59,939 nucleotides of DNA, taken from Nitrospira sp. (GTDB taxonomy: Bacteria > Nitrospirota > Nitrospiria > Nitrospirales > Nitrospiraceae). How positions within the stretch are numbered: position 1 is the stretch's first letter; the number at the start of each line of letters is the position of its first letter. Both the position numbers and the translations under genes were made by a program. A model generated the notes under the pieces. It ran no database searches. It was not told the origin of the DNA and was given only the letters and a program-made list of their open reading frames with translations. The DNA lies in the NCBI GenBank assembly GCA_035760745.1, contig DASTSI010000216.1:1-59939 (forward strand). Reading direction: 5' to 3'. This document shows positions 11,801 to 58,652 of this stretch, in pieces.

Positions 11801-11828
11801 ATATCGGCCGGTTCCTTATTGCCCTTAA
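11801..11828 (-). promoter_or_regulatory. sigma-28 (FliA)-type promoter of the response regulator
   Basis: TTAAG-N15-GCCGATAT. Confidence 0.7.
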
Positions 11829-11909: not shown

Positions 11910-12932
11910 ATGCCGATGAAAAGACTCCTCGTCGTCGACGATGATCCAGGAACCTTGCCGCTGCTTCGCGGCATGTTGTCCGACATTTCGGAAGACTGGA
12001 CCATCGAGGCAGCCGCCACGCCTGAAGAGGCGCTAGAACGGCTCTCCTCCACGTCGTTCGACGCCGTACTTTCGAGCACTCACCTCAATGGAGGAGGCGG
12101 CATCCAACTGCTCTCCGATGTCAAAACCCAGGCGCCTGACGCGGTGAGGATCGCGATGGATTGCGCGGCGCATCGATCAGCCATCCTTCGCGCACTTGAG
12201 GTCGCCCATCAGTTTCTGCCCAAACCTCTCGACCCCGCAGGACTGAAGGCCGTGCTCGCCCGGGACAGGCCTCGTGCGAGACCGGATGACGAACGACTCG
12301 ATTCGCCGCCTGATCGCCGAAGTCCGCACCCTTCCCAGTCTTCCGGCGATCTACCGAGAATTAGTGGACGCCCTCGAATCTCCGCAGGCCGCGGTCGACA
12401 CAGCCGCACGGATCATTTCCAAGGACATGACGATGGTGAGCAAGATCCTCCAAGTCGTCAACAGCTCCTATTTCAGCTTTCAGCCTCCGGCGGACCATTT
12501 CCAGCCCTGGTCACGCCACGCCATCGCATTGCTGGGGATTGAAACGATAAAGTCCCTGGCGTTGGCCCTGCACGCCTTCTCGGAATCCAGCCAGCGTACG
12601 CTTCCCGTTTCCGCGGATACGCTCTGGACGCACGGGAGGAGGTGGGCACCACCGCTCGGGCCATCTCCGTTTCGGAACGGCTCGGCGACAGCATAGTCGA
12701 AGCCATCACCCATCATCACACCCCAGCAGCCGCAACACGAAACGAATTTTCCCCGCTGACTGCCGTCCATGCCGCGGATGTCCTCCACGAAGAAGGCGAT
12801 CGGTCGATGGCCCCGAGGCAGCGAACGTCGCTCGATATGGCGCATCTCACGGCCTGCGCCCTCGCCGACCATGTCGCACCATGGCGGAACGCCATCCCGA
12901 AGACTGTGTCAGGGAAGAGCGCGTGTTGCTAG
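11910..12932 (+). pseudogene. REC-HDOD domain response regulator, frameshifted and internally deleted
   Basis: REC in ORF 11910, HDOD N-part (LPSLPAIY, ILQVVNSSYF, LLG) in ORF 12274, HDOD C-part (IVEAITHHH, VHAAD) in ORF 12642; the LLHDIG..HAExG core is missing. Confidence 0.8.
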
Positions 12933-13288
12933 CAGTTCCGACCCGCCTCGAGGGCTTCGCGGAGAGCCTTTTCGAGCTCATCCAGTCGAGTTTCCAGGGC
13001 GGGCCTCAGCGCGGAAGCCGAAGTAAGATCGCCCTGCCGGCACAACTCTTCCGTCCGCCTTACGATGTCGACTGCCATGAAAGCGCAGAACTGCATGACC
13101 GATCCTTTCAGCCGATGCGCCACCGAGGCCGCGGATCCCCGCTCGGCCCTGTGAAGCGCGGCCCGAAGCGTCTCGACGTCTTTCCTGTATTCCTTGAGGA
13201 ACAAGGCCGCGAGCTCCCCGAACAGTTCTCGATCCCCGTCGAGGCGAGTCAGGGTCTCTTCCAGATCAAAAACCGGGTCAGCCGCCAT
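12929..13288 (-). CDS. stand-alone Hpt phosphotransfer protein
   Basis: RLDGDRELFGEL..FL, AHRLKGS. Confidence 0.88.
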   Translation of the reverse strand: MAADPVFDLEETLTRLDGDRELFGELAALFLKEYRKDVETLRAALHRAERGSAASVAHRLKGSVMQFCAFMAVDIVRRTEELCRQGDLTSASALRPALETRLDELEKALREALEAGRNC

Positions 13289-13320
13289 ACGCCATGCTCC
13301 GAAATCCCGACGTCATCGTC

Positions 13321-14601
13321 TCAGCTTGAACGTTCGCCCCGCGGCATCCCGAAAGTGGCTTGTGGCGAGCCGGAGTCGGCGTCCGTCGCCTCGCTCCTCT
13401 CCAAACCGACCAAGGCGGCATCATCGTCAAAATGTTTCGCCTGCTGCCAGGCTCGTGATTCCTTGAGGCAGCGGTCGATCACCATGTCGAGCGGCGCGGC
13501 CGCGGTTTGCTCCAGGAGGTGCTGGAGACGTTCTCGTCCCCACAACTCCCCGCTCCCGGACATCGTTTCGTACAGCCCGTCGCTCATCATATAGATCCGG
13601 TCGTGGGGACGGACCCTGCAGACACCCGGGGCAAAGGCTGCATCGGGCATGAAGCCCAGCGGCATGGCCGGCTGCGTCAGCCAGATCGACGCGTGTCCGG
13701 GACGACAGAGAATGGCGCCGGGATGCCCGGCTGACACCCAGGAGAGCGTCCATGTTTTCAACTCAAGCGTGGCGATCCAGAGGGTGAAATAATGCCCTTC
13801 GCTTGTCATCGGAAATCTTCGGTTCGCCTCGGCGGCGATCGCCGCGGGATCGTATGAGCCGACGACTCGGATTACTTGTTCAGGATGCAGGAAGGTCGCC
13901 ATGGCGGCCGCCCGCAGAGCCGCGGACACCCCATGGCCCGACGCATCCAGCATGTACAGGCCCAGACGGTCGGTTCCCCATCGACTGACGCCGAATAGAT
14001 CCCCGCCGAGCGCGAGCGAGGGCAAGTAACGATAGGCCATGCGCAGGCCCGGAGCAGGGCTGCCTTGCTCCGGAAGGAGCGATTCGACGAACTGCGCCGA
14101 AGAGGCCAGGTCTTCATCGAGAATCTGCTGCTTGGCCAATAACTCTTGTCGAGATCGGTCCAGGCGGTCTCGCGTATTTTCCAGTTGCCGCACGAGCGCA
14201 TGAGTCCGTAAGGCGGCGCGCACGCGAGCCACGATCTCTTGAATTGAGGCCGCCTTGCTGAGGAAGTCGTCCGCGCCGCGAGCCAACCCCTCCGCGATCT
14301 GATCCGGCTGATCGTGGGCGGTCATCATGATGATCTGGCTGGTGGCCAATAGCGGATCCACTCGCACCGCTTCGCACAATGTGGGTCCGTCCATTTCCGG
14401 CATCATCCAATCCACAATCACGAGGTCCGGCCGCAAATCCCGCATCCTCTGCAGTCCTCGCGCTCCGTCCGGCGCCTCGTGGACGGCATATCCGAGCTTC
14501 GCCAACCGTCTCGCCAGACTGTGCCTGGCTACCGGCTCGTCGTCGATCACCAGGATCGTAGCCGATGGTTCGCACGACGCTGCGGAAGAGGGATGAGACA
14601 T
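13321..14601 (-). CDS. REC + PP2C/SpoIIE serine phosphatase (RsbU/RsbP-like)
   Basis: REC IVDWMMP; PP2C motifs GGDLF, DASGHG, AGHP, SDGLYE, DDAAL. Confidence 0.92.
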   Translation of the reverse strand: MSHPSSAASCEPSATILVIDDEPVARHSLARRLAKLGYAVHEAPDGARGLQRMRDLRPDLVIVDWMMPEMDGPTLCEAVRVDPLLATSQIIMMTAHDQPDQIAEGLARGADDFLSKAASIQEIVARVRAALRTHALVRQLENTRDRLDRSRQELLAKQQILDEDLASSAQFVESLLPEQGSPAPGLRMAYRYLPSLALGGDLFGVSRWGTDRLGLYMLDASGHGVSAALRAAAMATFLHPEQVIRVVGSYDPAAIAAEANRRFPMTSEGHYFTLWIATLELKTWTLSWVSAGHPGAILCRPGHASIWLTQPAMPLGFMPDAAFAPGVCRVRPHDRIYMMSDGLYETMSGSGELWGRERLQHLLEQTAAAPLDMVIDRCLKESRAWQQAKHFDDDAALVGLERSEATDADSGSPQATFGMPRGERSS

Positions 14602-14610
14602 GTCGGGAGA

Positions 14611-14952
14611 TCAGGCTACCGAGGTGGAAGCGAGTGCTTCGGATTCCGAGCCGAAAATCGGGATCAGCGCAGAAATATTGGCTAACATCATGATTTCTCG
14701 GACATAACTTTGCGGCTGGACGATGCTGAATTGCATCTTGCTGAGCTTCAGGCTCTGGGACAGGAGGGCGAGAAGACCGAGCCCCGCGCTGTCCAGGAAC
14801 TGCACCTCTTCCATGTTCAAGACGAGATGGCGACAAGCGGTCTGCTTCACCTGTTCGACGGCGGCTTTGAACGTCGCGCGGTTGTCATACGTCAAATCCC
14901 CCTTGAGCGCGAGGATCGTCGCCTCCTTGCATGTTCGTTGAGTGATGTGCAT
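14611..14952 (-). CDS. STAS domain anti-sigma factor antagonist 1
   Basis: LKGDL, VQFLDSAGLGLL with phospho-Ser. Confidence 0.9.
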   Translation of the reverse strand: MHITQRTCKEATILALKGDLTYDNRATFKAAVEQVKQTACRHLVLNMEEVQFLDSAGLGLLALLSQSLKLSKMQFSIVQPQSYVREIMMLANISALIPIFGSESEALASTSVA

Positions 14953-14983
14953 CTGTCCCCTTTCACGAAGCCCTTGGCGGCGG

Positions 14984-15355
14984 TCAAGGGACCGTACACC
15001 CGATCGCCTCGCGTTCGGAATGATAAATCGGAACGATTTTCGGGATCCCGGAGATCATCAGCAATTTGGAGACCTGCTCCGTCGGCATCAGCAGGCCAAA
15101 CTCTCGTTGACAAGACTCAAGGCGCCGATACGTGAGTGCAAGCAGGCCGAGTGCGACGCTATCGATGAAATGGACGTGACGGAGATCCAGAACCACCCTC
15201 GCGCATCCCGCATCGAGCGAGCGATCCACGGCGGCGACCAATTCCGCCCGATCTTGATAACGCAGAGCGCCGCGAAGGGACACCAGCGAACAGTTGTCAT
15301 GAAGAATCATGTCGGCAATCACACCGGCTTCCCTCCTGCGCCGCTGCGCGTTCAT
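14984..15355 (-). CDS. STAS domain anti-sigma factor antagonist 2
   Basis: LRGAL, VVLDLRHVHFIDSVALGLL; start either ATG 15355 (ATGA overlap) or GTG 15322 after AGGAGG. Confidence 0.85.
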   Translation of the reverse strand: MNAQRRRREAGVIADMILHDNCSLVSLRGALRYQDRAELVAAVDRSLDAGCARVVLDLRHVHFIDSVALGLLALTYRRLESCQREFGLLMPTEQVSKLLMISGIPKIVPIYHSEREAIGCTVP

Positions 15356-16044
15356 CGCCCTGTCGCCGCCGCTTTCGGCATCTCGGAAGCCGCGGCACCG
15401 GCCTGGGGAAGACGAACCACGGCTGTCACTTCGCTTCCGTTTTGCCGGTACTCCAGCCGGGAGAAGCTCGTGAGAAGGGCGGTCGCGATACCCCGGCCGT
15501 GGCTGTCGAGCATGCGTTCGGGGCCAAACTCCAGATACGGACGCCAATCGAATCCGGGTCCCTGATCCGTGATCGTCAGGATCACTTCATTTGGCATTCG
15601 TTCCACTCGCACCGCGGCATAGCGAGCGGCATATTTGGGCAACAGCAAACGGCGGGCGACTTCCCGTTCCAGCTGGTTGGCCAGTACGAGCCGGGTCTTT
15701 TCTTCGTAGCCGATCTCCAAGTTCCCGTGTTCGACGGCGTTCAGAAGCAATTCTCCGATGCCGACCGCGGCACGGGCGGAATCGGGGCACATCGCCGCGA
15801 GGAAGGTCGTCAGCTGCGAAGCCTCTTCCGGCGTCCGGAACGCAAATCGGACTTCACGCAACAGATGCAGCGAACCGAGCAGGTCATGCGCGGCCGCCTC
15901 GGCACGGTTTGCGACTTGGCACAACAAGTCCATCATCCCGCCCCTGCCTCCCCCGCTCCCGGCCTTCCAGTCAACGGTGCCATCCCCGGCCAGTTCCCGA
16001 ATTTGAAGCGCAATGGTCTCCAGCACGCTCACGGGGTCCGGCAC
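15352..16044 (-). CDS. HATPase_c anti-sigma factor / serine kinase (RsbW/SpoIIAB-like)
   Basis: ELLLNAVEHGN, ITDQGPGFD, HGRGI, GSEV. Confidence 0.85.
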   Translation of the reverse strand: MPDPVSVLETIALQIRELAGDGTVDWKAGSGGGRGGMMDLLCQVANRAEAAAHDLLGSLHLLREVRFAFRTPEEASQLTTFLAAMCPDSARAAVGIGELLLNAVEHGNLEIGYEEKTRLVLANQLEREVARRLLLPKYAARYAAVRVERMPNEVILTITDQGPGFDWRPYLEFGPERMLDSHGRGIATALLTSFSRLEYRQNGSEVTAVVRLPQAGAAASEMPKAAATGR

Positions 16045-16075: not shown

Positions 16076-16903
16076 TCATTGATCACGTCCCGACCTCGGG
16101 AACAGGTTCGGAGGAACCGAACGCGGTGCGGCTTCACCACCGGTCGCTTCGCTTCCGTTCCACCGCGACATCGGATTCATTTCCGCCGTCGGCCGCCGCT
16201 CCGCAAGCACGATGATCTCCACGCGCCGATTTTTCGCCCGGTGCTCGGGCGTGAGATTGTCCGCTTTGGGAAGGGAATCGGCCCGTCCCACCGCGCTGAG
16301 GTGGCTGGGCGGCACACCATAGAGTTCCGTCATGACGCGCAGCGCGGTCACCGCCCGTATGGCGGACAGCTCCCAGTTCGAGGGATATTGCGTCGTGCGG
16401 ATCGGCACGTTGTCCGTGTGGCCCTCGATCCGGATTTCTCTGTCCAGTTCAAGCAAGATTTCCGACAGCGCTTTCAGGAATGGCAGCGCGTCAGAGCGCA
16501 GATTGGCCTCTCCGCTGTTGAACATGACATGCTCCGGCACGGTCAGGACGATCTCGCCGGTTGAATGTTCCTCCATTTCCACGAGCTCGAGCCCGGTCGC
16601 TTCCTTCAATGAATTCATGATGGCTCTGAGCCGGCGTATGACCGGTTCTTTTGCGTCAGCCGGCGCGTGCAAGACGGAGGGCTTCGCTGTGCCGACGGTA
16701 AAGGCCAACTTGGAAGCCGGGGCGCTCACGACCGGATTCAGCGCCGCTCTGATCGACTCGCTGACCGTCCGGTATTTCCCCTCATTGACCGACGAGACCG
16801 AATACATCACGACAAAGAAGGCAAACAACAGAGTGATGAAATCCGCATAGGACACCAGCCACCGTTCGTGATTCTCATGATCTTCATGCTTCGGCTTCTT
16901 CAT
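16076..16903 (-). CDS. motB: flagellar stator protein MotB
   Basis: WLVSYADFITLLFAFF, EGHTD, NWELSAIRA, NRRVEI. Confidence 0.95.
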   Translation of the reverse strand: MKKPKHEDHENHERWLVSYADFITLLFAFFVVMYSVSSVNEGKYRTVSESIRAALNPVVSAPASKLAFTVGTAKPSVLHAPADAKEPVIRRLRAIMNSLKEATGLELVEMEEHSTGEIVLTVPEHVMFNSGEANLRSDALPFLKALSEILLELDREIRIEGHTDNVPIRTTQYPSNWELSAIRAVTALRVMTELYGVPPSHLSAVGRADSLPKADNLTPEHRAKNRRVEIIVLAERRPTAEMNPMSRWNGSEATGGEAAPRSVPPNLFPRSGRDQ

Positions 16904-26185: not shown

Positions 26186-26416
26186 TTACGCCTGTTGCGA
26201 GCGGCTGTGCATCCAGTCGTGAATGTCGCGGCGAAGAAACCGCCAGTGCTTTCCGATCTTCGAGGCCGGCAGTTCTCCGATGCGCGCGAGCTTGTACACG
26301 GTCGACTTCGGCACCCGGAGGAAACGGGCGACCTCCATGACCGTCAAAATCTCGCTGTCCGCTGGCGACAAGTCCTGTGGATGACGAATCGTTGTTGCAG
26401 GCACGGCATTGTTCAT
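26186..26416 (-). CDS. small excisionase/MerR-like helix-turn-helix protein (HTH_17, BldC-like)
   Basis: LTVMEVARFLRVPKSTVYKLARIGELPASKIGKHWRF. Confidence 0.85.
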   Translation of the reverse strand: MNNAVPATTIRHPQDLSPADSEILTVMEVARFLRVPKSTVYKLARIGELPASKIGKHWRFLRRDIHDWMHSRSQQA

Positions 26417-26426
26417 AGCGAGTGTC

Positions 26427-26454
26427 GTATCGGCGTCGTCGATGAGGAACTTGA
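26427..26454 (-). promoter_or_regulatory. sigma-28-type promoter of the HTH-che operon
   Basis: TCAAG-N15-GCCGATAC. Confidence 0.75.
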
Positions 26455-26537
26455 GCACCGGCTTGCATTCGTTGGGGGAGAGATGTCCCGGGTGGTGCTC
26501 GACTGGAGCCGTTAGCGGCCTTCAGATTTTGCGGAGA

Positions 26538-48423: not shown

Positions 48424-48450
48424 CTATCGGAGAAGACGCGCAGAACTTGA
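48424..48450 (-). promoter_or_regulatory. sigma-28-type promoter of HD-GYP1/PilZ
   Basis: TCAAG-N14-TCCGATAG. Confidence 0.65.
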
Positions 48451-48654: not shown

Positions 48655-49914
48655 ATGAAAACGAAGAAGCGGATTCGGGTGGAGCAGTTGAAACCGGGGA
48701 TGTACGTCGTCGGGATGGATCAACCTTGGTACAAGACCCCCTATCTTGTGCATCATTTTCTGGTGCAGTCGGATGATACCGTGGCGGACCTCATCCGACA
48801 CGGGGTACGCGAAGTCAGCATCGACCCGACGAAAGGCCTCGACGTGCCCGACCCGGATCAGCCCGGCCCGGCTCCGACCCCACAGGCACAGGACCAAGCG
48901 GGGGAAGCGGCATCCCGTCCGATGCACGAGCCAGTCGCCCGCTGCGGCCGGATCACCAAACAGGATCGGAAGCTGTACCAGGAGGCCGAGGTCGCCGTCG
49001 AGCGGGTGCTCGAGGACGTCCATGGGGGACGGATGCCCAGTGTGCCGGCTCTTGCATCGATTGTCGGGGGATTCTTCGAGCGGGTCTTACAAGATCGCGC
49101 GGCGATGATGACGCAAGTCTTGCTGCGGCAAATGCGGCGCTTCGATCGAAGCCTGGCCGCTCATGCGATCGACACCTGCGTCCTCTCACTGGTGTTCGCG
49201 ACCGAGCAGGGCGCGAGCCCGGAGGAGATCGAACAGATCGGGATCGGCGCCCTCTTGCACGACGTGGGCTACGTCCGGCTCCCCAGAAATCTGTACCGGG
49301 CGCGCCTCCAATTGGCTCCTCACGAGCAGGAGCTGATGCGCCAGCATCCCCGGCTCGGCAAGACGATACTGGCCCAAGTGCCGGACTTGCATGAGACGGC
49401 GCGCCGCATCGTCCTCGAGCATCATGAACGGATCGACGGGTCGGGCTATCCCGCGGGCTTGAGGGGTGCGGCATTGCTTCCGGCCGGACAGTTGGTCGGT
49501 CTGGTTGACACCTATGAGTCGCTCATCACGCCGCGAGCCGGCCATTTGCCGCTGTCTCCGTTTCAGGCCATCCGGCATCTCTTCATGCTCGGAGAAAAAC
49601 GCACCTTCGACAAGGCGCTCGTCGAAATTGCGATCAAGTGCTTGGGCGTCTATCCCATCGGCAGTCTCGTCAAGTTGAACACGGGTGAACGCGCGATTGT
49701 CGTGGCCATTAACGCCGACCACCGGCTGAAGCCCGTGTTGAAACTGATTCTCGGCGAGCACGGCGAGCCCTATGGCGACCCGCCGCTCGTGGACTTGGCT
49801 TCCCCCGACCAGACGGGCCCCGTCCGCACTATCCTAACCGCGTTGGATGCCGCAGCCGAGCAGGTGAACGTGGCGAGATATCTCGACCCGACGCCTGAGG
49901 AGCAGGCCGCGTGA
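48655..49914 (+). CDS. HD-GYP domain protein (partly degenerate) with DUF3391-like N-terminus
   Basis: LKPGMYV..W..TPY, HDVGY, HHERIDGSGYP, VDTYESL. Confidence 0.88.
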   Translation: MKTKKRIRVEQLKPGMYVVGMDQPWYKTPYLVHHFLVQSDDTVADLIRHGVREVSIDPTKGLDVPDPDQPGPAPTPQAQDQAGEAASRPMHEPVARCGRITKQDRKLYQEAEVAVERVLEDVHGGRMPSVPALASIVGGFFERVLQDRAAMMTQVLLRQMRRFDRSLAAHAIDTCVLSLVFATEQGASPEEIEQIGIGALLHDVGYVRLPRNLYRARLQLAPHEQELMRQHPRLGKTILAQVPDLHETARRIVLEHHERIDGSGYPAGLRGAALLPAGQLVGLVDTYESLITPRAGHLPLSPFQAIRHLFMLGEKRTFDKALVEIAIKCLGVYPIGSLVKLNTGERAIVVAINADHRLKPVLKLILGEHGEPYGDPPLVDLASPDQTGPVRTILTALDAAAEQVNVARYLDPTPEEQAA

Positions 49915-57951: not shown

Positions 57952-58260
57952 TCATAGAACCGATTCGGTCAACGCATGTCGGATCAACGCGTCGCCGATG
58001 CTTCGGCCGTCGATGCTGTAGGTTCCATTGTCGATGGCGCGCTGCAGCCGTTCCAATCTTTCCGCCCGCACCGGATCCGCTTCTTTCGTCAGCGAGGTGA
58101 TGCGCCGAAGTTCCTTGGCCTGATCGGATATCTGAACCCGATCGCCCTGCTGCTGCGATTTGCTCCGAGGCCTGCCGGCTGCCGGCCCGACTTCCTGCAC
58201 GCCGAGCAGAAGTTTCGCGAGCTCCGCCGCTCTGCCTCGTCCGGAAATTTCCATGGTCAT
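57952..58260 (-). CDS. flgM: anti-sigma-28 factor FlgM
   Basis: DRVQISDQA, RAERLERLQRAIDNGTYSID. Confidence 0.92.
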   Translation of the reverse strand: MTMEISGRGRAAELAKLLLGVQEVGPAAGRPRSKSQQQGDRVQISDQAKELRRITSLTKEADPVRAERLERLQRAIDNGTYSIDGRSIGDALIRHALTESVL

Positions 58261-58652
58261 GTCCTCCCCTGATCCGTCTTCATGTCGCCAGGGCGGGGCG
58301 CCTCGTGACTTTTCGCCTCACCGGATCCGTTATCGGACGGGGGCGAGGAAAACTTGAGTCCGGTTTTACCCATCCATCCCTGTTGTTGCTCAATATACAT
58401 TTCGACCATGGCTCCGAGGCCGAAGCCGCCGGCCCGCGCAGAGACCCGTCCGATCTCCTGATCGTAGAAGCTATAGAACATCTGGCCGGCTTCGTTCTTG
58501 ACTAGGCCGGTATGCACGGTTTCTCTCATGGTTTTCAGGAGATAGGAAATGAAATACCCCTCGAACTCTTGCGCGGCCTCGCGGATTCTGGCCGCATCCG
58601 GCTGGACGAAGGTCCCGGCGGCAGGCCCCGGCGCGGCAGCGGGCGACACCAT
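58257..58652 (-). CDS. flgJ: FlgJ, rod-binding domain only
   Basis: AAQEFEGYF..LLKTMRETV, YDQE, GFGLG; no muramidase domain. Confidence 0.85.
   Translation of the reverse strand: MVSPAAAPGPAAGTFVQPDAARIREAAQEFEGYFISYLLKTMRETVHTGLVKNEAGQMFYSFYDQEIGRVSARAGGFGLGAMVEMYIEQQQGWMGKTGLKFSSPPSDNGSGEAKSHEAPRPGDMKTDQGRT
58330..58357 (-). promoter_or_regulatory. sigma-28-type internal promoter of flgM (within flgJ)
   Basis: TCAAG-N15-TCCGATAA. Confidence 0.8.

Follow-up and report, generated by a model that had tools for sequence, protein, structure and literature searches.

A partner-switch module behind the motor genes of Nitrospira whose Ser kinase appears to carry a degenerate chemoreceptor tip

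The 59,939-nucleotide contig DASTSI010000216.1 of a Nitrospira sp. genome (GenBank assembly GCA_035760745.1), called the window here in its full length, carries a five-gene module directly downstream of the motor gene motB. The genes code for a Ser kinase, two STAS proteins (STAS2 and STAS1), a PP2C-type phosphatase with a receiver domain (REC-PP2C), and a stand-alone histidine phosphotransfer protein (Hpt). An earlier annotation of this stretch (the original prediction) proposed that these genes form a partner switch. On balance, we slightly favor a model in which the module is a Ser-phosphorylation partner switch with a kinase that is likely ungated, in which the phosphatase, fed by Hpt, is the likely point of control, and in which the switch most likely tunes sigma-28 and flagellar output. 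In addition, the first ~60 residues of the kinase, whose nature the original prediction overlooked, appear to be a degenerate chemoreceptor tip. The module is ordinary within Nitrospira, and the kinase with its receptor tip is a lineage-specific domain fusion whose role in this genome is probably structural.

As originally described, the five genes all lie on the minus strand immediately behind motB, where open reading frames (ORFs) and Pfam and NCBIfam matches identify them, and their key residues are intact. The intergenic gaps from motB to Hpt, in gene order, are 31, -4, 31, 9, and 32 bp. Motif residues read from the kinase sequence include E98, N102, H106, D160-G162-G164, and H182-G185. 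Both STAS proteins match the Pfam STAS family and score above the cut-off of the NCBIfam model for anti-sigma factor antagonists. S55 of STAS1 is invariant in all 27 aligned orthologues, and STAS2 keeps a Ser within its DS motif. The receiver of REC-PP2C carries D20, D21, D64, T94, and K116 (with Lys-Ala in place of Lys-Pro), its phosphatase domain carries D201, D219, D341, and D393/394, and the phosphoacceptor H58 of Hpt is intact. The nearest solved relative of STAS1 is SpoIIAA, and that of REC-PP2C is 3EQ2, which matches over its full length (E 8e-40). STAS2 more likely starts at the GTG at position 15322, since an AGGAGG sequence lies 9 nucleotides upstream and the resulting length of 112 residues is that of its relatives. 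Sequence and comparison thus show one conserved block that encodes a Ser kinase with its motifs intact, a pair of STAS proteins that each bear the Ser, a receiver-gated phosphatase, and an Hpt protein.

A synteny survey found the same gene order in four other genomes of the genus, and therefore the module is not a chance arrangement. The kinase also has a close homologue in Nitrospira sp. KM1. Short contigs from public sequencing runs agree at 99-100% with several parts of the region, among them kinase codons 27-107, but these might come from the source sample and not be independent.

Several comparisons relate the kinase N-terminus to the hairpin tip of methyl-accepting chemotaxis proteins (MCPs). 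Five of eight tip kinases scanned match the Pfam family MCPsignal (PF00015) over their first 60-79 residues. Among these, P0002 scores 34.7 bits against a cut-off of 34.6, and P0003, P0004, P0005, and P0007 have E values of 4e-8 to 1e-4. When a hidden Markov model (HMM) of ten such N-termini was searched against 34,449 six-frame ORFs of the genome, it retrieved, besides itself, solely two MCPs, both at their tips (E 5e-7 and 5e-5). With an HMM of 15 MCP tips and 500 shuffles as controls, eight of the ten N-termini beat every shuffle, P0015 beat 499 of them, and the window protein 498. An hhalign comparison of the tip N-termini gives an E value of 3e-7, and the tip starts in an identical register in all 10 aligned homologues.

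The likely donor can be narrowed further. On related loci, the HMM of N-termini assigns 46-51 bits to 34H receptors of a second chemosensory cluster, compared with 30-31 bits for other receptors. Likewise, the P0002 tip is identical to 34H tips at 28 of 61 positions (46%) and to other tips at 21 of 61. For the clade of tip kinases, these values indicate that the hairpin descends from the tip of a second-cluster 34H receptor, and the same ancestry seems very probable for the window protein. A McpA-like gene was considered as the donor, prompted by a tipless 165-residue copy in genome G010, and is disfavored because it scores 30 bits. That copy (L047:1728-2225, minus strand) has its tip deleted in frame, leaving the N- and C-terminal helices, and similar ORFs of 175-180 residues occur in L101, L102, and L145. 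It also carries a DxxxQ motif that we take to be CheZ-like.

AlphaFold predicts a two-helix antiparallel hairpin (helices 4-20 and 34-61) that leads into the first kinase strand, with a mean predicted local distance difference test (pLDDT) score of 84.9 and tip blocks of 60-84. With only tip kinases aligned, the mean falls to 74.8 and the N-terminus is of low confidence (blocks 44-70). Lower-ranked Foldseek matches raised the possibility of a histidine kinase with a hairpin like that of dimerization and histidine phosphotransfer domains, which was rejected because no His is conserved in the hairpin. Response_reg has no match at the N-terminus of the window kinase.

The catalytic domain belongs to a family that usually carries a receiver in this slot. 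Its best structural matches are SpoIIAB and, as the top Foldseek hit (E 3e-8), Leptospira LvrC (PDB entry 9QIH), which is described as a putative anti-sigma factor of Rec-Bergerat architecture (PMC13269768). LvrC is also the best sequence match, and the helical insertion past the N box aligns between the two proteins. However, LvrC has a receiver at its N-terminus, where the Nitrospira kinase has the receptor-tip hairpin. The kinase domain has 2271 homologues, and the 120 listed are mostly REC-kinases. Of 160 loci of the family, 148 encode a receiver at the N-terminus and 4 a tip, with the other 8 truncated or unclear. All four tip kinases belong to the STAS-PP2C block described here, one being a duplicate of the G019 locus. 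For comparison, the 83 family loci of at least 12 kb include a histidine kinase gene in 60 cases and a STAS gene in 6. When 1.84 billion representatives were searched with a profile, 4804 matched, and of the best 150 only three align from the first position, all from this genus. In these searches, the fusion of a tip to this kinase was found solely at this locus. The same kinase domain occurs with other inputs as well, namely PAS/GAF, dCache-PAS, MHYT-PAS (in Nitrospira), cNMP-binding (in spirochaete-named sequences), and REC-kinase-PP2C arrangements (L060, L061, L062, L064; P0122-P0240).

In quick trees, from which seven kinase rows were left out (L110_12925 is a different protein), nine of the ten tip kinases group in one clade within the REC-kinases of Nitrospira. 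For this clade, the placement indicates that the tip replaced the receiver of an LvrC-type kinase. That kinase in turn replaced the pseudo-receiver kinase that other Nitrospira have at this position. The canonical REC-kinase is missing from all five genomes of the genus that carry the module, and a different kinase precedes STAS2 there. A single origin of all ten tip kinases is favored because they share position, length, and a derived Cys at the position of R404 in the receptor Tsr. The Cys is present in seven of the ten, including the window protein (residue 42, window positions 15919-15921, minus strand). The notion that Cys42 is an exposed regulatory thiol is speculative.

The tip is most eroded in the window kinase, and several observations on this protein weigh against our account. 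MCPsignal does not match this protein (nor P0009 and P0015), and its tip scores only 5.7 bits against the HMM of MCP tips. When the HMM of N-termini is rebuilt without the window protein, it ranks this protein third, at positions 1-60, with an E value of 0.24. In the best trees its kinase domain lies outside the tip clade on a long branch, and a single clade is not rejected (approximately unbiased test, p-AU 0.17). Finally, the Pfam HATPase_c_2 match to the kinase (E 3e-5) is slightly below the gathering score.

The module is family-wide and not limited to this window, with STAS1 orthologues in 213 of 371 family genomes. Most Nitrospira that have flagella carry it downstream of their motor genes. 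In 20 comparison loci from other genera, which were selected by their STAS1 hit, STAS1, REC-PP2C, and a downstream REC-kinase are always present, Hpt is found in 19, and a second STAS protein in 11. The block lies directly behind cheB of the second chemosensory cluster in 14 of these loci, and within one gene of motB, as in the window, in three. The complete order, seen in G134, G324, and G105, is the che1 core, motA, motB, a small STAS gene, the McpA-like gene, cheY2, cheA2, cheW2, one or more 34H receptor genes, cheR2, cheD, cheB2, and the module. From this gene order (STAS, McpA-like, cheY, cheA, cheW, 34H MCP) we presume that the second cluster is F8-like. Historically, the module was the tail of this cluster. 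CheD and CheA2 are absent from this genome and from G022, and thus the placement behind motB is most likely the outcome of a deletion of the second cluster. In G024, cheB2 and motB seem to be fused in one ORF, but this results from an N gap and is artefactual. In G324, the STAS and REC-PP2C pair is duplicated in tandem (L050:0-3028, minus strand), and this genome carries both kinase types.

Loss of the donor cluster raises the possibility that the module is a decaying remnant in this genome. The neighboring REC-HDOD gene is frameshifted here and missing in G022, the tip evolves at a ratio of nonsynonymous to synonymous substitution (dN/dS) near 1 relative to G022 (a saturated comparison), and the long kinase branch would also fit decay. 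However, the five ORFs are intact with their catalytic residues kept, the kinase domain has a dN/dS of ~0.2 against the six relatives for which it could be computed, and G140, G087, and G091 also keep the module in the absence of an adjacent second cluster. We consider decay very unlikely.

Chemotaxis cores have been lost reciprocally in the genus. This genome (G000) and G022 keep CheA1 and lack CheA2 and CheD, whereas G010 and G024 keep CheA2 and CheD, lack CheA1, and retain cheY1-cheZ. Because of this loss, the F8-like cluster may drive the motor in G010 and G024.

The tips have kept packing positions of the receptor and lost its docking residues. We assume the residue numbering of Tsr, whose spacing agrees with that of E385, R388, F396, and N381 in a published account, and we also presume the individual roles of L377 and L380. 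Positions F373, L377, L380, N381, F396, V399, and R404 are kept in none of the 10 tips, whereas the small and hydrophobic packing positions A379, A382, A397, A400, L406, A407, and S410 are kept in 8-10 of them. In receptors, the N-helices contact CheW and CheA-P5, and N381 is a trimer contact (PMC6681711). Identity averages 37% for the tip, compared with 65% for the kinase domain. Most pairs are saturated for dN/dS, and the one usable pair, G019/L152, gives 0.23 for the tip (Fisher p 0.001) and 0.11 for the kinase domain. Values between this genome and its relatives, which are saturated, are 0.36-1.1 for the tip and ~0.2 for the kinase domain (six relatives).

The simplest reading is that the tip is a helical bundle retained for packing or dimerization, and that it replaced a receiver already inactive in the canonical kinase. 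The hairpin now probably serves such a role with no docking to CheA or CheW. Purifying selection on the tip tells against this reading insofar as it suits a signaling role just as well as a structural one. Indeed, the tip might still dock and tie the Ser kinase to arrays through CheW, CheA-P5, or receptor trimers, such that receptor state or polar location sets STAS phosphorylation. Docking is consistent with the derivation of the tip from receptors of the very cluster that the module follows, with its identical start register in the 10 homologues, and with the selection on the tip, which was measured in a pair from a cluster-bearing lineage. Moreover, tip scores are lowest in the two genomes without the donor cluster (5.7 and 9.7 bits), as would be expected if function was relaxed after the loss, and this would allow for an array role in the past or for a residual one. 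However, G010 has the donor cluster and an equally weak tip (9.8 bits). None of the 10 homologues retains the exposed N-helix residues or the trimer residues, even where the cluster is still present, and the donor cluster is absent from this genome. The tip kinase persists in both genomes without that cluster. We judge docking to be quite unlikely, and we are equally doubtful of a receptor-mimic kinase that is plugged into or gated by the array and that passes receptor state to a STAS switch over flagellar genes, bypassing CheA-CheY.

With the hairpin in place of a receiver, the kinase likely runs ungated. The full Asp-Asp/Asp/Thr/Lys set is lacking in all 21 receivers of canonical kinases, whereas the phosphatase of related loci keeps the receiver Asp-Trp motif in 25 of 26 cases, which favors control at the phosphatase. 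It is highly probable that the kinase phosphorylates S55 of STAS1, and also STAS2, and that the phosphatase removes these groups once its D64 has been phosphorylated through H58 of Hpt. The original prediction suggested that the hybrid kinase encoded at position 49911 feeds this relay. That protein carries its own Hpt domain with H878 intact, which makes it a weak candidate. The genome encodes 28 hybrid kinases, two of them with an Hpt domain, and two free Hpt proteins. Because so few hybrids carry an Hpt domain, the module Hpt more likely receives its input from some of the other 26. In G091 a hybrid kinase gene is located between the PP2C and Hpt genes, and in G108 the Hpt is fused to a hybrid kinase, both of which support a hybrid-to-Hpt relay in the module. 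In G087, Hpt and REC-PP2C are within one ORF.

For the output, dephosphorylated STAS1 could tentatively be proposed to sequester FlgM and free FliA. This possibility gains from a sigma-28-type site that heads the co-directional run of genes ending in Hpt and is conserved in four relatives, in agreement with the sigma-28 transcription that the original prediction had presupposed. Because the operon appears to be sigma-28-driven, such an output would close a positive loop. Equivalent sites lie upstream of cheR or cheY in G022, G010, G216, and G105, and such sites immediately precede STAS genes in G024 and G140. Within the window, similar sites precede flgM, fliC, and HD-GYP genes. The pattern has four matches in the window compared with 0.09 expected from shuffles, an expectation that is optimistic because the pattern was fixed after the sites had been seen. 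The sites in the four relatives and those before the STAS genes of G024 and G140 provide support that is independent of it. A terminator scan is uninformative on operon limits, since the 15 found are at the chance level (13.1 expected), and the same holds for the lack of any sigma-70 promoter in that scan. Two back-to-back pairs of sigma-28-type sites were also noted, one at 11828 (minus) and 11857 (plus) before REC and REC-HDOD genes, and another at 48450 (minus) and 48520 (plus) before two HD-GYP genes.

The distribution of the module tracks FlgM. Of 33 genomes of the genus, the same 5 encode the kinase, STAS1, and FlgM, and among these five flagellin is found in four and CheD in three. Across the 371 family genomes, STAS1 and FlgM occur together in 190, STAS1 alone in 23, FlgM alone in 35, and neither in 123. 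Some observations count against FlgM as the target. Co-occurrence is expected from linkage within the flagellar region, the genomes are kin and thus not independent, and many are incomplete. At least eleven genomes with STAS1 only are at least 90% complete. Furthermore, the HsbA protein of P. putida has no effect on FliA and acts on a cyclase (10.1101/2024.11.25.625174), whereas in P. aeruginosa HsbA binds FlgM and HsbR controls RpoS (PMC6482189; PMC8256260). Co-folding of STAS1 with FlgM, each with its own alignment and without controls, scored 0.00, and we use it as evidence neither way. FlgM proteins of Nitrospira are unusually conserved at N-terminal residues 3-22, with ten invariant columns in 30 sequences, and this region is a candidate partner-binding site.

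A Pfam scan of 28 window proteins revealed no sigma factor, and none of the 11 genome matches to sigma region 2 is on this contig, consistent with the lack of an adjacent sigma gene noted originally. Three of these matches were typed with NCBIfam as RpoS-like, FliA, and RpoD-like, and the rest were assigned by eye to RpoD, RpoH, and ECF types. The original prediction named a cognate target of the SigB or RpoS type as a finding that would speak against it. No SigB- or SigF-type factor was seen among the 11 matches (the genome is 95% complete), but RpoS is a possible target, since an RpoS-like sigma (best NCBIfam matches RpoS) is encoded by a gene that is cut by a contig end.

A switch acting on this RpoS-like sigma would work as in CrsR-CrsA or HsbR, in that the kinase would sequester RpoS until displaced by dephosphorylated STAS. 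HsbR and CrsR are reported to regulate RpoS (PMC6482189), the CrsR-CrsA che-type locus (PMC9855816) is mirrored by the module in 14 of 20 relatives, and the kinase resembles the anti-sigma factors LvrC and SpoIIAB in its fold. However, the RpoS-like sigma is present in 30 of 33 genomes of the genus, whereas the module is in 5. Also, non-orthologous replacement of the kinase within the genus would be easier if solely its STAS-kinase activity matters. We regard this option as rather unlikely.

The STAS proteins might themselves be the output, acting on enzymes of cyclic di-GMP metabolism or on another partner in the manner of HsbD/CfcR, SiaD, or SypA systems and involving no sigma factor. In P. 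aeruginosa, HsbA binds the cyclase HsbD (PMC6482189), and its P. putida counterpart inhibits CfcR (10.1101/2024.11.25.625174). The window encodes two HD-GYP-type and two PilZ-domain proteins, and the genome has four GGDEF matches. However, there is no GGDEF cyclase gene on this contig, and the neighbor screens of relatives were run without GGDEF queries. This option is, in our estimate, unlikely, and FlgM/FliA remains our tentative choice of output. The features are listed in Table 1.

Table 1. Window coordinates of the module and of associated features
Feature	Position	Strand	Assignment	Basis and remarks
kinase (whole ORF)	15352..16044	-	230 residues	GTG start, GAGGAG site upstream
kinase residues 1-60	15865..16044	-	probable degenerate chemoreceptor (34H MCP) hairpin tip	relatives carry receiver domain in same slot
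kinase catalytic domain	15352..15864	-	anti-sigma-type (Bergerat/GHKL) Ser kinase, LvrC family	helical insertion past N box
STAS2	14984..15322	-	second anti-anti-sigma-type protein	Pfam/NCBIfam; longest ATG ORF begins at 15355
STAS1	14611..14952	-	conserved anti-anti-sigma-type protein	Pfam/NCBIfam; predicted phosphoacceptor S55
REC-PP2C	13321..14601	-	receiver-gated PP2C (SpoIIE-type) phosphatase	Pfam Response_reg and SpoIIE
Hpt	12929..13288	-	stand-alone phosphotransfer protein, H58	Pfam
motB	16076..16903	-	upstream neighbor of module	Pfam, synteny; sits with kinase behind cheB2 in relatives retaining the second chemosensory cluster (moved there)
sigma-28-type promoter-like site	26427..26454	-	heads co-directional HTH-cheR-cheY-cheZ-cheA-cheV-cheB-mcp-cheW-motA-motB-module	run of 13.5 kb ending in Hpt
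flgM	57952..58260	-	candidate target of dephosphorylated STAS1	Pfam FlgM; own sigma-28-type site at 58330-58357

The original comparison with the Pseudomonas HptB-HsbR-HsbA system (PA3345-PA3347; P. putida PP_4362-4364) holds at the level of partner-switch logic, as judged from Pfam matches and residues. The two share Hpt, a receiver-gated PP2C, an anti-sigma-type Ser kinase, and a Ser-bearing STAS protein, and the Nitrospira module has both an adjacent stand-alone Hpt with its His and a STAS-only antagonist with its Ser. In P. putida, hsbA-hsbR-hptB also lies inside a flagellar cluster (10.1101/2021.08.29.457346). HsbR, however, is a single REC-PP2C-kinase polypeptide, whereas kinase and phosphatase are on separate genes in Nitrospira, which also has two STAS proteins and an LvrC-family kinase with a chemoreceptor tip. 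The original term "split" is not supported as the description of an evolutionary event. The fused relatives that were read (three of ~10 with REC and PP2C) have the order REC-kinase-PP2C and not that of HsbR, and the PP2C domain is 25% identical in the one compared. On these grounds an origin by splitting of HsbR was rejected, with the HsbR and CrsR sequences themselves outside the alignment. Separate genes for kinase, PP2C, and STAS proteins are common (PMC9239204).

In Shewanella, CrsR-CrsA is found in the che1 locus (F7; cheA-cheY-cheW-cheR-cheD-cheB; PMC9855816) and is likewise a partner switch within a CheD-containing chemosensory cluster, an arrangement shared by G010, G019, G024, and 14 of the 20 loci from other genera. 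An RpoS-like sigma is available in both systems. By contrast, this genome has no CheD-containing cluster, CrsR is one three-domain protein, and the Nitrospira cluster looks F8-like. The Bacillus systems RsbU/RsbV/RsbW-SigB and SpoIIE/SpoIIAA/SpoIIAB-SigF also have separate kinase, phosphatase, and STAS proteins, but the Nitrospira genome shows no SigB/SigF-type sigma and its module has an Hpt phosphorelay as input. Relative to an MCP, ~60 residues of the kinase are homologous and in register from N-helix through turn to C-helix. However, the kinase has the tip alone, without methylation helices, HAMP, or sensor, and this tip has lost its docking residues and is fused to a Ser kinase.

The module had been put forward as the best candidate for an undescribed system in the window. 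No paper on the Nitrospira module was found in a search that left subscription journals and supplements largely outside, but switches of this logic have been described in Pseudomonas and Shewanella, and the module is family-wide. It is probably a motility-linked partner switch of nitrite-oxidizing Nitrospira. A search with most subscription journals and supplements outside its scope also found no paper that describes the fusion of an MCP tip with a kinase of the anti-sigma type. Few signaling sequences are as highly conserved as chemoreceptor tips, and the reuse of one as the N-terminal domain of a Ser kinase is the part that specialists would notice. The relatives preserve a natural series of tips, from 46% identical to barely detectable. 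With this series, the role of an MCP tip freed from the array and the wiring of non-chemotactic F7/F8 clusters to STAS partner switches become testable.

Some observations concern other genes. G108 encodes a FliA/WhiG-family sigma factor ~4 kb from its module (L110:16605-17528, minus strand), and this genome has no FlgM match and has its Hpt fused to the hybrid kinase. A stressosome-like cluster flanked by hybrid kinases is present at G000:C215:14737-17669 (minus strand), in a genome where no SigB-type sigma was seen. We presume its genes to be RsbR-, RsbS-, RsbT-, and RsbX-like. In the window, the REC-HDOD gene (11910-12932, plus strand) is convergent on Hpt and has two frameshifts, near 12270 and 12640, which are not bridged by the public-run DNA contigs and might be assembly errors. 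In G010, G019, and G024 a single frame holds both the REC and the HDOD part, and G022 lacks the gene at this position. At the head of the chemotaxis operon is a small HTH_17 (excisionase-like) gene at 26186-26458 (minus strand), and its real start is probably further down because the sigma-28-type site overlaps the start of the longest ORF.

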